Shown: piece by piece, positions 10,498 to 24,671 of the stretch
Position numbering within the stretch: the stretch's first letter is position 1
Layout: every line of letters begins with the position of its first letter
DNA from: Gemmatimonadota bacterium
GTDB taxonomy: Bacteria > Gemmatimonadota > Gemmatimonadetes > Gemmatimonadales > GWC2-71-9
Direction: 5' to 3'
Assembly (NCBI GenBank): GCA_011390645.1
Contig: JAABRY010000011.1
Span: 1 to 51,232, forward strand
DNA length: 51,232 nt
Program-made: the position numbers and the translations under genes
Notes under the pieces: model-generated
Seen by the model: only the letters and a program-made list of their open reading frames with translations
Told to the model about the DNA's origin: nothing
Databases searched by the model: none

Positions 10498-11577
10498 TCA
10501 GGGGTTCAACGACACCTGGGTCGGCATCGAATCACCCTCGGTTGCCATCGGGACTTCCGCCGCCTGCGGCGCCGGATACATCCCGGGGTAGTCCTTCGCC
10601 ATCGGCTGCCCATAGAGCGGCTTGTAGACGCCCTGGTGGCAGGTGCTGCACTGCAGCTTGGCGCCGTCGCCCAGCGGACCGCGGGAGATGTTGGCATCCA
10701 CATGCCACGGCTTGAGCGTGCCCTCGCCGGTCAGGTGCCCCTTGGCGTGCTTCGCCTCAGGCCACACGTCCTGCAAGACCAGCATGTGGTTGATGTTCAG
10801 GTCACGCACCATCCGCGTGCCACGCAACGCCGTCAAGCGCTGCGCCGGACTCTGCTCCCAATCCGCGAAGGCGCGCGAGTTGTGGCAGTAGGTGCAGTTG
10901 ACCCCGAGCGCCGAACTCATCGAGATCATCAGGCCGTAGGTGTACTCGGTCTGGTTGACACTCGCGAGGTTGTTGCTCTCACTGCGCAGCGCCGCGTCGG
11001 TCTGGACGCGGACGTCCTCTCGATCCAGGTAATGGCGCAGTGACTGGTTCTCGTCGGTGTAGAACCAGGTCCCTTCCGGCACCTGATTCCCCCGGTGACA
11101 GGTGTAGCACGTGACACCCGTTTGGGCGACGTGACCGGTCCATTCCGAGTTCACCGCGTGCGTCATCTTCAGCATCTGCTTGGCGACCTTGTAGGTGTAC
11201 TTCTCATCACTCGCCATGTTGGCCGGGTTGTGACAGTACACGCAACCAGCCTCGGGGCCAGTCTTCGGGGCCACCCACTCGGTCATCGCTGCCATCGTTC
11301 GCACGAACTCGCCGTTCGAGAGGTGTCCGAGCACCTGGAGGTTCTGGTACTGGTCACCCGCGCGCGACGAATCGGTGGTAGAGCTGGGCGCAAGCGGATC
11401 GGGCACCTGATGATCTGCGGCGGTGCCGGCAAGCCGTTCGGGCGAGTAGACCTGTTGCATCCCGACACCGCGGAAGCCGTTCTGGGTGCTCTCTTGCGGC
11501 GGCAGTTCGCAACCGGCGAGTGACACGGCCGCCACGAGCGCGACGAGCGCGCCCGGGCGGAAGCGGTGCATGCTCAT
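10498..11577 (-). CDS. pufC: Reaction-centre-bound tetraheme cytochrome c subunit
   Basis: Lipobox SLAGC; four CxxCH (CVYCH, CYTCH, CTYCH, CSTCH); ATGA overlap with the pufM stop. Confidence 0.97.
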
Positions 11578-12605
11578 CGTGCACCTCCAGCCGGCAGGCC
11601 GGGGAAGGTATCAGGCGGCGCCATTTGCAACTGGCCCGAGCGTTCAGGAACCGTCGCCGGATCGGCGGCTTCCCACGCGGCCGGATACTGGGGCACGAGG
11701 CCGTGCTTCTGACCCCACAGATACCAGTTGTCCACGACCGTGCCGGTCAGCAGGATGCCGATGCCGCCGGTGAGCGTCGTCAGCACCGCAAACCACCACG
11801 CCCACCGGTGGATCGATTCCATCGTCGCATTGAAGCCCATCGTCCAGCGCCAGAACAGCGCCGAACGCTCCGCACCGGTTCCGCGATCGGTGATCTGCTC
11901 GATCTCGCGCTCCGCGCCGTACTTCGCCGTGGCGAGAATGGTCGCGCCGTGCATGGCGAAGAGCAGTGCCGACCCATAGAGGAAGGCGATGGAGAGCATG
12001 TGGAACGGGTTGTAGAACAGGTTCCCGTACCGGATGCTGAACGCCGCCGTCCAATCGAGGTGCGAGAAGATGCCGAACGGCACCGCCTCACCCCAGGCGC
12101 CCATCAGCAGCGGGCGAATGAAGCCCAGCACCAGGAAGAGCCAGATCGCCGAAGCGAATGCCCACGGCAGGTGATTGCCCATGCCATGCGCCCTGGCACG
12201 TCGGAAGAGGCGCACCCACCACAGCAGCACCGAGACGGTGAGGAAGAAGCCGGCGAGCAGCCACCATCCCCCCTCCGCCATCGGCGGAATGCTCAGGCCA
12301 TACCCCGGCGCCGGCGGATCGAGCGAGAGCCACGGCAGGAGCCGGACAAACTCGATCACGTTCCAGTTGACCTGCGCGAGGTAGTTGAAGCCGATGATGT
12401 TGAACGCGAGCGTACCGAAGATGAGGGAGGCTACCCCGGTCCAGCCGAGATAGATCGGTCCCACCTGCCAGTCACCGACCTTCCCGAGCCAATACGAAAT
12501 CTTGGGCGGGAATTGTCGCGTCCACGTGTCTTCCTTGATTGGCGGACCCCAATCCGGGGCGGTCCGCACCTGGACCTGGGTCCAGAGATTCTGATAGTCG
12601 GGCAT
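11574..12605 (-). CDS. pufM: Type II reaction centre M subunit
   Basis: [59 protein letters not shown]. Confidence 0.99.
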
Positions 12606-12617
12606 GCCCGTCGTCTC

Positions 12618-21894: not shown

Positions 21895-23613
21895 TCACGC
21901 GGCATCACGCGCCAGGGTGGCCACGCGGGTGATCGCAGCGGCATCCGCGATCGGCAATGGGAGGTAGCGCAGGCCCATCGTGTCGGCGATCTCCTGCGCC
22001 ACCGCACTCGGCCGGGGTCCGATGTCGAGCCACGCGCCCTCGACACGGTCCGCTCGGAGCCGTCGCGCCACCCCGAGGGCCTCTGCGTGCGCCACCGGGC
22101 GGCCGCCGGTTCCGGCGCGTGTCACATTGGCGCGACCATCGCTGAGGATCAGCACGACCGGCCTCCCTCCCGCTCGTCGGACCTGCCGCTGCACCTCGGC
22201 AATGCAATCCAGCGCGGCCGCCAGCGGTGTCCCCCCCCCACCGGGAAGGCCGGCGAGCGCGCGTTTGGCCCGGGCCAGCGCACGCGTGGGCGGCAAGACC
22301 ACTTCCGCCCCCGCGCCGCGGAAGGTCACCATCGCGACGGCATCGCGGCGCACATAGCTCGCGGCGAGCAACTGCTCTGCCGCACCCTTCGCTTCGTTGA
22401 GTCGGTTGAGCGCAGTGCTGCCGGAGGCGTCCACCACGAGAATCGTTGTCGTGGCCGACGGCCGCCAGCGCCGCTGGATCCGGAAGTCGTCGGGCCGTAC
22501 GGCCAGCGCACCGCCGCCCGGCGCGGCGCCCCGCAACCGCTGCCACGGCACGGCCGCGCGAATCGTTGCCAGCAGGTCAAGTCGTGCGCCACGCCGCGGA
22601 TCGCCGCGCCGGGTGCCCACCCGACGACCGCGAGGCCCCTCGGTGGATGCGTCGCCCTGTCTCCCCCCCCCACGCGCACCGGCGGCCCCAGCCGCAAGGA
22701 GCGCCAGGAGGTCGGGGGGAATGGCCGCCGTCGCGGCGTCCACGACGCGCTCTGCCAGCTCGCGCTCTTCCTCGGCGCCGGGCGGCTCCGCCGCCTGGTC
22801 CGACTCCGACGAGGGGGGGGGAGGTTCCGGCGGCGGGGGCGCCTCGTCCTCCGGCGGCAGCGGCAGCCGGGTGGCCCGTGGCCCGAGGACCAGCGCCGCG
22901 GCGGCGGCGAGGTCGTCGCCGTTGGCCAGGTCGCGGCCCGCAAGCGCGGCATGCGCACGCGCAGCCCGCATGGCAAAGCTTGCCGCTCGCAACGACGCCA
23001 CCCCAAGGGAGGCGGCGGCCGCGACCAGCGCGGACACGGCGTCGGGTGGCAGGTGCACCCCGGGCAGACGCTCTCGCGCCGCGGCCACCTCACCAATGGA
23101 CGGCGCATCCGCCACGGGATCTGCGGCGCCGGGGGGAAGGCGGAGATCGAATGCGACGCGATCGGCCAGTGACGCCGCAACTGACGGCTCATCGGGCTCC
23201 GCTTCGTCCAGCAGGAGAAGCGCGCACGCGGCGGGGCGCACGGCACTGACCCCGTCGCGCTCGGTACGCACCGAACGGGTGTCCATCACCTGCGTCAACA
23301 GCCCCACGGCCTCGGTCGAGAGCCGCTCGGCCATGGGGATGACCAGGGCGCCCTCATGCGCGAGCGCGGGAAGCCCGGGTTCAAGCACCGGGCGACCAGT
23401 CACCAGCGTGGCCGACAGGTCGAGTCCCCCCCCCAATCGTTCGGCCGCGATCCCGGGAGGGACGCGGCGCACCCGGTGCGGCGCGGCCAGTCGTGAGGTG
23501 ACGGCATGGACCCACGCCCGGGCCGCCGGCGTGTGCCCCCCCCGAAGCACGGCGCCGCCGAGCCCCACGGGATCGACGGCGAGGAGGCCCGCGGCGAGGC
23601 CGAGCGAGGTCAC
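21895..23613 (-). CDS. bchD: Magnesium chelatase subunit D
   Basis: [31 protein letters not shown], Pro/Glu linker, v[35 protein letters not shown] overlap with bchI. Confidence 0.95.
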
Positions 23614-24653
23614 GCCGCGGCAGTGGGCGCGGGGAGCGTGGCCAGGGCACGGCCGACGCGTGCGCCCGCCGTCGCCTCGTCGAGCGGATCGCGGCGGAGT
23701 CGATGCCGGAGCGCCAGCGGTGCAACGCGCGCGAGCAGCGCATCGTCCGGCTCCGCAATGCCATCCAGCGCGGCCAGCGCGCGCATCGCGCGGAAGAGGG
23801 TCAACTCGCCCCGGAGGCCATCGGTGCCCAGCGCCACGCACAGCGCACTCGCGCGCTCGAGCAACGGCATCGGAAGTTCGACCAAGGGCAAACGGGCTCG
23901 CGCTGTGCGCACCTGATCCTGCAGCGCCGCGTCGGCCGCATGCCACAGCGCGGCGAACCCCTCCGGATCGCGATCGAACGCATCGCGACGCCGCACGATC
24001 TCGATCCGCTCTGCCACCTCCGCGGGCGTGCTCACCTCCACCGCGAGCCCGAACCGATCGAGCAACTGGGGCCGCAGATCGCCTTCTTCGGGATTGCCGG
24101 AACCGACGAGCACGAAGCGCGCAGGGTGACGCAGCGACAGTCCTTCACGCTCGACGACGTTCTCCCCACTGGCTGCCACGTCAAGCAGGAGGTCCACGAG
24201 GTGGTCCTCCAGCAGGTTCACCTCATCGATATAGAGGAAGCCGCGGTGCGCACGGGCCAGCAAGCCGGGTTCAAAGACCTTCTCACCGCGTGTCAGGGCC
24301 CGTTCAAGATCGAGTGCGCCGACGATGCGGTCCTCGGTGGCCCCGAGCGGCAGGTCCACGACGGGTACCGGACGCTCGATCGTCGGGATCGCCTCACCCT
24401 CGGCATGGCGCCGGCGACAGCCCTCGCACCACTCACCCTGCCCTGCAGCCGGATCGCACCCGAACGCGCATCCTGCGTGGGCGGGAAGCGTCGGGAGCAG
24501 TGCCGGCAGGGCGCGCACGGCCGTCGACTTTCCCGTCCCGCGATCACCGAACACCATGACACCACCAAGCGCCGGCTCCACTGCGGTGAGCAGGAGAGCC
24601 AGTTTCATCTCGTCCTGGCCGACGATCGCGCTAAAGGGATAGACTATTCGCAT
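23610..24653 (-). CDS. bchI: Magnesium chelatase ATPase subunit I
   Basis: [74 protein letters not shown]; start ATG 24653. Confidence 0.98.
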
Positions 24654-24671
24654 TGTCACGTTGGGTTGACA
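24654..24671 (-). promoter_or_regulatory. PpsR/CrtJ palindrome directly abutting the bchI start codon
   Basis: TGT-CACGTTGGGTTG-ACA; an imperfect half-site ends at 24693. Confidence 0.7.

Follow-up and report, generated by a model that had tools for sequence, protein, structure and literature searches.

Does this bacterium carry a photosynthesis gene cluster broken into distant pieces, or a complete one that only appears halved? The window, which is the whole stretch of DNA analysed here and the complete contig C254 (51,232 bases) of the metagenome-assembled genome (MAG) G000, holds on its minus strand, at 10498–24674, a block of photosynthesis genes in the transcription order bchID-puhE-cruF-crtF-bchCXYZ-pufBALMC. 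An earlier note on this DNA read the block as half of an acquired cluster that had been fragmented and integrated with host genes, or else as belonging to a phototroph of an under-described clade. Pfam and NCBIfam profiles together with small open reading frames (ORFs) recover every gene named in that note, all on the minus strand; throughout, gene ends are ORF ends and gene starts are likely starts. G000 (2.93 Mb in 295 contigs, 86.1% complete, 1.85% contaminated, 67% G+C) belongs to the same GTDB genus as G001, a MAG titled 'Gemmatimonadales bacterium isolate HK-STAS-GEMM-1', which bears out the Gemmatimonadota host proposed in the note. The best explanation as a whole, which we hold to be likely, is that the cluster is complete but interrupted, joins a second contig (C193), occupies a fixed site, and was ancestral to the genus and repeatedly lost. 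The block would then be the puf-side superoperon of a complete bacteriochlorophyll-a, type-2 cluster of an uncultured Gemmatimonadales species.

The puh-side half on contig C193

Contig C193 of the same genome (28,362 bases) gives one match each for the PRCH (puhA) and BCHF profiles. One of its strands carries acsF, cut by the contig end, followed by puhC, puhB, puhA, lhaA, bchM, bchL, bchH, bchB, bchN and bchF, whereas the other strand carries ppsR, bchG, a PucC-family gene, an FrhB-family gene, bchP and tspO, with hemF further on. In the resulting order, bchM-lhaA-puhA-puhB-puhC-acsF, acsF lies downstream of lhaA and is separated from it by the puh genes. The window and C193 together hold the bacteriochlorophyll a set (bchIDH, bchM, acsF, bchLNB, bchF, bchXYZ, bchC, bchG and bchP) and puhA, acsF being half assembled. 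Nineteen C193 proteins (acsF, puhCBA, lhaA, bchMLHBNF, ppsR, bchG, pucC-like, FrhB-like, bchP, tspO, hemF and an epimerase) found no match in the window by tblastn (E ≤ 1e-10, at least 40% coverage), so the earlier observation that the 51 kb lack the other-half genes stands, and the puh/bchFNBHLM half that the note proposed to look for is located on C193.

The ends of the two contigs fit each other. On C193, acsF breaks off at residue ~151 of 326, and the window starts at residue 119 of the 165-residue small secreted protein that comes next after acsF in G001; its 3' end at 1–144 (plus strand, residues 1–47, frame 0) aligns with residues 119–165 of the G001 protein at 53% identity. The missing part of acsF was not found on any other G000 contig. 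Taken together, these observations leave ~0.9–1 kb unassembled between C193 and C254, and we infer that C193 joins the left end of the window across approximately 1 kb. With 10.5 kb in the window and ~0.4 kb in the gap, the insert in G000 amounts to ~11 kb. The puh-side superoperon and the bchG/bchP operon would thus adjoin the left end of the window, and synteny points to a complete G000 cluster whose convergent halves are interrupted by ~11 kb of ordinary genes.

As a separate observation, the FrhB-family gene (C193:17602-18846; L004:3602-4846) of the bchG-bchP operon is flanked by the PucC-like gene and by bchP. Such a gene may, we presume, encode a ferredoxin-type 8-vinyl reductase rather than a hydrogenase subunit. 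The accessible text of PMC8547001 and PMC9426454 describes frhB in this operon for some MAGs, PMC8547001 placing it, for one group, within the bchP-bchG operon.

Both halves on single contigs in two congeners

Two members of the genus have both halves on one contig. In G001 (159.8-kb contig), bchFNBHLM-lhaA-puhABC-acsF is followed by a small gene and by genes for a HerA-like ATPase, an M19 dipeptidase, a symporter and a trehalose synthase, then by the puf side in the order pufCMLAB-bchZYXC-crtF-cruF-puhE-bchDI, by M16, hemY, hemL and hemB, and, beyond hemB, by aminotransferase, GNAT, epimerase, PAP2 and cupredoxin genes. G409 (153.8-kb contig) shows the same layout, including ppsR-bchG-pucC-frhB-bchP-tspO-hemF, and its pufC-acsF interval holds just M19, a DUF6252 gene and memX. 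The halves are therefore separated by ~10 kb in G001 and ~4 kb in G409.

Comparison with the window reveals that in both congeners all cluster genes follow the same order and lie in the same chromosomal surroundings (cupredoxin, PAP2, epimerase, GNAT and aminotransferase, then hemB, hemL and hemY, and further on M19). The inserts deviate: unlike the window, G001 lacks the aldehyde dehydrogenase gene and memX and carries another 1.8-kb stretch instead, whereas G409 has the M19, DUF6252 and memX insert and no M16 peptidase gene. The convergent superoperons lie on single contigs in G001 and G409, while in G000 they depend on the inferred contig join. That ordinary host genes interrupt the cluster, as the note had it, is seen directly over 10.5 kb of the window.

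A subtype I cluster with an insert at a variable boundary

How common is such a cluster in the phylum? PufM matches occur in 20 of 400 other genomes sampled from it, with none among 15 in the genus, 4/166 in its family f1, 13/93 in sister family f2 of the same order and 3/70 in family f7 of another order; in a wider genus sample, 3 of 40 genomes have PufM. The suggestion of an under-described clade is in line with this rarity of phototrophs in the family (4/166) and the genus (3/40). A separate PufM search of one genome per species yielded 587 relatives, and among the best 80 that were kept the closest PufM proteins come from G001 (86%), a Longimicrobiaceae MAG (77%) and proteobacteria (66–76%).

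The 14–40 kb around pufM were taken from all 20 PufM-positive genomes of the phylum sample. The halves are convergent in 17 of the 20 loci; G279 has another order, and G313 and G345 are too short or divergent to tell. In seven of the eight g58 genomes, pufC and puhC are 6.5–7 kb apart, bchID-puhE is divergent, and acsF stands between bchM and lhaA, which is the layout that PMC7844134 and PMC8547001, in their available portions, give for Gemmatimonas. The g58 insert, viewed in one genome, consists of a kinase-like, a PP2C and a VWA gene plus two unknowns, and the pufC-puhC interval of four family-f1 genomes spans 0.2–2.7 kb.

Published descriptions, as far as their available text goes, agree that this boundary is not fixed. 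PMC8547001 calls the cluster of Gemmatimonas phototrophica 'fragmented ... divided by a set of hypothetical genes', with the same split in 3 of 9 related MAGs, and describes the bchFNBHLM and crtF-bchCXYZ-puf superoperons as convergent in Gemmatimonadota; PMC7844134 likewise places hypothetical genes between the puh and puf operons. The note's premise that the G. phototrophica cluster is contiguous is at odds with both accounts. As two markers of Gemmatimonadetes clusters, PMC7844134 also names the position of acsF, between bchFNBHLM and lhaA, and that of bchO, between bchCXYZ and puf. In the text seen of PMC9426454 (Zheng et al. 2022), subtype I is defined by acsF after the puh genes and bchID co-directional with crtF, is assigned to SG8-23/UBA6960 MAGs and to 1 of 33 Gemmatimonadales (S09.Bin022), and shows, where the puh operon ends and the puf operon has not yet begun, a highly variable region of unrelated genes; its non-phototrophs are suggested to have lost the cluster.

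The window cluster is of subtype I, and neither marker of PMC7844134 is present in it. It shares with subtype I, as the consulted part of PMC9426454 presents it, acsF downstream of lhaA-puhABC, bchID upstream of and co-directional with crtF, a variable stretch of unrelated genes between puh and puf and, given the proposed contig join, convergent superoperons. It differs in that its host falls within the order of the Gemmatimonas-type genomes, for which that paper gives this subtype in 1 of 33, and in that its insert is longer (~11 kb) and made of identifiable genes of a shared neighbourhood. With the ~42-kb cluster of G. phototrophica and G. groenlandica, as given in the portions seen of PMC7844134 and PMC8547001, it has in common the gene inventory, the bchID-puhE linkage, a split puhA, an unrelated-gene insert between puh and puf and, again given the proposed join, convergent halves. 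It differs from Gemmatimonas clusters in that bchID is co-directional with crtF and not divergent, in having one pufA and not two, in its CruF-family gene and insert content, and in the absence of acsF between bchM and lhaA and of bchO between bchZ and pufB. Proteobacterial clusters share crtF-bchCXYZ-pufBALMC in most of the 76 loci examined, a count that leaves out four loci from Gemmatimonadota-titled MAGs (L005, L006, L008 and L010), and their proteins are 66–76% (PufM) and 74–86% (BchX) identical to those of the window. Unlike proteobacterial superoperons, the window has puhE after bchD and not after acsF, a split puhA in its genome, and hemB-hemL-hemY at the bchI end.

The insert would thus sit at the puh/puf boundary known to vary in Gemmatimonadota. 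An insert at this boundary and the subtype I gene order are already in print in the available text of PMC8547001, PMC7844134 and PMC9426454, and the note's proviso that the order might already be the norm holds in part, namely for the published subtype I. What is new is that the insert genes are part of a neighbourhood common to the ten genus genomes inspected at this locus, that the block is cleanly absent in three congeners without a PufM match, and that carriers and genomes without a detected cluster intermingle on a local 12-genome tree; within the limited literature collection searched, we found no description of the trehalose-synthase/HerA insert or of clean cluster absences.

One chromosomal site in genomes with and without a detected cluster

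All ten inspected genus genomes without a detected cluster have all or part of one neighbourhood in common. Its order is HerA, M19, symporter and trehalose synthase, then aldehyde dehydrogenase or M16 (each in some genomes), then hemY, followed by aminotransferase, GNAT, epimerase, PAP2 and cupredoxin. Search coordinates put the trehalose synthase gene of G321, G394 and G429 ~230–325 bp away from the M16 gene, the synthase coding region being perhaps longer, and the 14-kb block and hemL-hemB are absent from the locus. The trehalose synthase of G321 is 88% identical to that of the window. PufM was not found in these three genomes (94, 93 and 89% complete, respectively), and BchF was found in 0/5 of G321, G394, G429, G379 and G432 by the same search that was positive in G000–G004. 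Additionally, the genes that follow to the left of HerA in these genomes have their G000 homologues on contig C295, which indicates that the puh-side half is also an insertion or deletion.

A local tree was built from five linked neighbourhood genes (2002 columns) of the 12 out of 41 sampled genus genomes for which loci were available. In it, four cluster carriers are interspersed among eight genomes without a detected cluster, and the starred branches force at least three changes of state. Specifically, G000 falls together with G425 and G321 (100/100), the latter having no detected cluster, while G001 stands beside G394 and G429, and G409 beside G405, G166 and G069.

The cluster holds one fixed chromosomal place in the genus, at which congeners without a PufM match keep the same neighbourhood. 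Because all carriers have it at the same site and a gain would need two insertions around a housekeeping island, ancestral presence with repeated two-step deletion is favoured: the ancestor of the genus may already have possessed the cluster, which would then have disappeared several times as its halves were deleted one by one, the least certain step of the proposed history.

Several observations weigh against this explanation. The ends of C193, C254 and C295 have no exact overlap, so the join between C193 and C254 is drawn from synteny. The three trehalose-synthase/M16 spacers contain no convincing remnants of cluster genes (best tblastn 24–26 bits, 1-kb target). The local tree is unrooted and covers linked genes of 12/41 genomes, so it does not tell gain from loss. 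In G425 (89% complete, 340 contigs), bchID is present without any puf match. Finally, the palindrome type TGT-N12-ACA, which we take to be the operator motif of PpsR, shows no overall excess in the window (6 matches against 4.6 expected), and none was found outside coding regions in the first 15 kb of C193.

One alternative is that the cluster spreads among congeners by homologous recombination in the shared flanks and so lands repeatedly in the same place. The patchy spread (PufM in 3/40 congeners, at least three changes on the local tree) and the spacers without cluster remnants would fit such gains, as would the finding that the G409 cluster is nearer to the window than that of G001 (PufM 93 versus 86%, BchZ 91 versus 79%) although flank proteins are about equal (AT12 81 versus 85% for G409 and G001, respectively). 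However, each gain would need two cassettes around the housekeeping island or a replacement of more than 40 kb, and the order of cluster similarity, with G409 nearer than G001, matches the neighbourhood tree. The block also bears a mark of its host, an 11-base poly-G word (T followed by eight G, then G or C, then A) that occurs 482 times in the G000 genome (0.16 per kb), five times in the 14.2-kb block and five times in the flanks, with a further copy in bchD of G425, which points to long residence. Neither the G001 cluster nor eight other Gemmatimonadota clusters contain the word, and it is missing from 1.33 Mb of loci that are mostly proteobacterial. On balance we consider repeated gain unlikely. 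The five sites in the block, at 18426, 20317, 22230, 22662 and 23425, fall in bchC, cruF and bchD, at twice the genome-wide density.

Origin of the cluster and the split puhA

Did this lineage acquire its cluster separately from Gemmatimonas? Concatenated PufL, PufM, BchX, BchY and BchZ were analysed with FastTree (the 78 of 101 sequences with all five proteins) and with a quick IQ-TREE run under LG+G4 (48 chosen rows). As the note had anticipated trees of these proteins, their outcome is given in full, with values of starred branches in brackets: the window groups with G001 (100), then with G082 of the same family (99), then with the Longimicrobiaceae MAG and family f7 (99), and this group is sister to a Rhodospirillales/Acetobacteraceae clade (98–100). 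The Gemmatimonas-type group, which includes the family-f1 genomes G206, G167 and G219, forms a separate clade (98–99). Taken at face value, this topology would suit a second acquisition from an alphaproteobacterium, independent of the Gemmatimonas lineage, and PMC9426454, in the part available, mentions 'two independent routes'.

Against it, monophyly of all 16 Gemmatimonadota rows is not rejected by the approximately unbiased (AU) test (log-likelihood difference 0.37, p 0.485). The same holds for monophyly of the six family-f1 rows (log-likelihood difference 59.6, p 0.136), so that this test yields no evidence of transfer within the phylum. The bchID-puhE linkage is common to both groups, and so is a peculiarity of puhA. 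In G000, puhA (C193:2006-2719, minus strand) is divided into two ORFs by an in-frame TGA that follows residue 66, a position shared with G001. A split puhA, with one short ORF for the membrane part and another for the cytoplasmic domain, is found in 21/21 Gemmatimonadota loci of both groups, versus a split in 1/16 other loci, where it lies at a different place in the gene; PMC12817894, in its accessible text, calls the split specific to Gemmatimonadota. Since all 21 loci are split, the subtype I group included, the split appears to predate the separation of the two cluster groups. The shared split points to one origin and argues against a second acquisition, which we judge to be quite improbable.

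Other antenna and cluster features vary within the phylum. The window has a single pufB-pufA pair without room for a second pufA, as do G001, G409, G082, G206 and G331, and a second pufA-like match is present in 4/8 g58 genomes. The single pufA of the window, taken with the split puhA, suggests that the double-ring antenna gene is younger than the split and that the window organism has a single light-harvesting 1 (LH1) ring. G206 combines the subtype I order, cruF and a PufL 90% identical to that of the window with a PufLM+BchXYZ position in the Gemmatimonas-type clade; its cluster may be a mosaic.

Distant halves and contig integrity

The earlier reading, that an acquired cluster fell apart into halves that now sit far from each other among host genes, is very unlikely. 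It would account for the lack of other-half genes within the 51-kb window and for ordinary genes on both sides of the block, but the window is a complete contig, the cut acsF of C193 faces its start, and in G001 and G409 the two halves lie convergently on one contig, 10 kb and 4 kb apart. By synteny with these two genomes, C193 is placed directly to the left of the window and not elsewhere.

The contig itself appears sound. Both junctions of the block recur in G001, and the bchI/M16 junction also in G425. The junction between the aldehyde dehydrogenase gene and pufC is bridged by public-run contigs of two studies, with a read depth of ~5 on both sides; this mapping covered positions 1–20000 and with them the left of the two junctions for which the note proposed a read check. 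One of the runs is possibly the source sample. No mobile-element genes or repeats were seen at the block junctions, where the spacers were inspected, and candidate direct or inverted repeats around the 14-kb block proved to be short, chance-level matches alone. That a chimeric or mis-binned contig fuses a proteobacterial cluster to Gemmatimonadota DNA, a caveat of the note for which the fragmented MAG (295 contigs) and a G+C content of up to 0.755 at 22–24 kb could be cited, can practically be dismissed, because both junctions are found again in independent congener assemblies, the host-specific poly-G word occurs in block and flanks alike, run contigs bridge the left junction, and the nearest PufM proteins, among the best 80 of 587 relatives, come from Gemmatimonadota.

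Genes and candidate operators of the puf-side block

The likely starts of block genes run into or directly adjoin the stops before them, and the block can be read as a single operon. At its upstream end, bchI (23610–24653) and bchD (21895–23613), all genes of the block being on the minus strand, encode the magnesium chelatase subunits and together carry the AAA_lid_2, VWA and Mg_chelatase domains. They are followed by puhE (21093–21905; PF12291, 116.5 bits; TIGR03055, 99.7 bits, under its cut-off of 164), a CruF-family, carotenoid hydratase-like gene (20227–21090; PF04240, 124.8 bits, under the NCBIfam CruF cut-offs) and a crtF-like O-methyltransferase gene (19094–20230; PF00891, 140.4 bits, under the NCBIfam equivalog cut-off). 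Next come bchC (likely 18000–18959, with an ORF region to 19052; TIGR01202, 415 bits against a cut-off of 291), bchX (16999–18003; PF00142, 329.5 bits), bchY (likely 15462–16991, ORF to 17093) and bchZ (14016–15461), the last two matching PF00148 and PF08369.

The pufL-bchZ interval (13458–14015, ~554 bases) is filled by pufB and pufA, with no bchO there. The LH1 beta gene pufB (13756–13917) is a 53-residue ORF with homologues at the same place in relatives, and the LH1 alpha gene pufA (13564–13743) is a 59-residue ORF 95–96% identical to those of G001 and G409; a search for a second pufA in the G000 assembly gave nothing below E ~0.4. Downstream lie pufL (12618–13457; PF00124, 330.5 bits), pufM (11574–12605; PF00124, 351.3 bits), whose product is 93% identical to that of G409 and 86% to that of G001, and pufC for the tetrahaem reaction-centre cytochrome (10498–11577; PF02276, 339.6 bits). 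The genes pufL and pufM and the LH1 genes pufBA, which jointly mark a type-2 reaction-centre cluster of the purple-bacterial kind, occur together in the window. The predicted products of the block would be BchI, BchD, the assembly factor PuhE and two carotenoid-tailoring enzymes (CruF-like and CrtF-like), followed by BchC, BchXYZ for the chlorin-to-bacteriochlorin steps, one LH1 alpha/beta pair, and the L, M and cytochrome subunits.

Three of the six PpsR-type matches in the window lie at telling positions. Two TGT-N12-ACA palindromes, 8 bp apart, are in the crtF/bchC interval upstream of bchC (19008–19051), and a TGTCA-N8-TGACA palindrome stands directly upstream of bchI (24654–24671); all three are candidate PpsR operators. 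As the motif is not in excess, what is suggestive is the placement of the palindromes. Transcription of the block probably starts ahead of bchI and a second time ahead of bchC, where these palindromes lie; the 15 public runs listed for the genome include no RNA run.

Insert and flanking genes

Next to the small secreted-protein gene, the insert holds memX, a membrane protein gene without a Pfam or NCBIfam match (239–1354, plus strand), whose homologue (53% identity) lies between M19 and acsF in G409. The gene for the HerA-like ATPase (1617–3245, plus strand; PF05872, 629.5 bits) is at the same position in G001 and also in G394, G432 and G379, which have no PufM match, and the M19 membrane dipeptidase gene (3354–4631, minus strand; PF01244, 312.4 bits) adjoins pufC in G409 and G419; both insert genes belong to the shared neighbourhood. 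In the spacer between these two genes, at 3254–3330, several public-run contigs skip or replace ~50–54 bases, and the spacer evidently varies among strains. The remaining insert genes are all on the minus strand: a sodium:solute symporter gene (5006–6742; PF00474, 96.6 bits), a trehalose-6-phosphate synthase/phosphatase fusion (6746–8869; PF00982, 423.6 bits, and PF05116), and an aldehyde (succinate-semialdehyde-like) dehydrogenase gene (9008–10372; PF00171, 448.8 bits, below the NCBIfam equivalog cut-offs). The synthase start may lie at ~8981, to which DNA similarity with G321, G394 and G429 extends. The dehydrogenase gene is the last of the insert before pufC and stands beside the trehalose synthase gene in G432 and G379.

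On the other side, the minus strand carries the M16 peptidase gene of the shared neighbourhood (24772–27546; PF05193, 203.3 bits, and PF00675), then genes for protoporphyrinogen oxidase (27567–29252; TIGR00562, 216.9 bits against a cut-off of 97.85), hemL (28934–30340; PF00202) and hemB (30217–31641; PF00490); for these last three the coordinates are ORF limits and the true starts lie further inside. The note's description of non-photosynthetic genes on both sides thus suits the left side, with its ordinary genes, but not wholly the right, where M16 is followed by three genes that are not unrelated to photosynthesis. Protoporphyrinogen oxidase, hemL and hemB are each single-copy, no second hemB or hemL being found in G000, and hemB-hemL adjoin bchI in the family phototrophs G206, G167 and G219 and in the genus members G409 and G001. 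Beyond hemB follow genes for a TonB-dependent receptor and an ABC importer. Further right, a plastocyanin-family cupredoxin gene (42394–42852) belongs to the shared neighbourhood of congeners with and without a detected cluster, and 45478–51230 resembles an alternative complex III operon, with cytochrome c, NrfD-like and molybdopterin/FeS subunit genes, the last cut by the contig end.

Implications for phototrophy in the genus

Taken together, what looked like half of a scattered cluster would be the product of contig breakage together with a known variable spot in Gemmatimonadota clusters. The locus adds a subtype I cluster in a Gemmatimonadales genus in which carriers are a small minority, and the fixed chromosomal site with clean block absences offers a set of genomes on the loss or regain of phototrophy. 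It also bears on the order of events, in that the split puhA is common to all Gemmatimonadota clusters examined, and a second pufA is not. A bolder view, for which we see a rather small chance, is that phototrophy is a species-level trait carried on two cassettes around a housekeeping island, both lost and passed between congeners by recombination in the flanks. If true, the genus would be a natural system for the gain, splitting and discarding of a 40-kb photosynthesis cluster.

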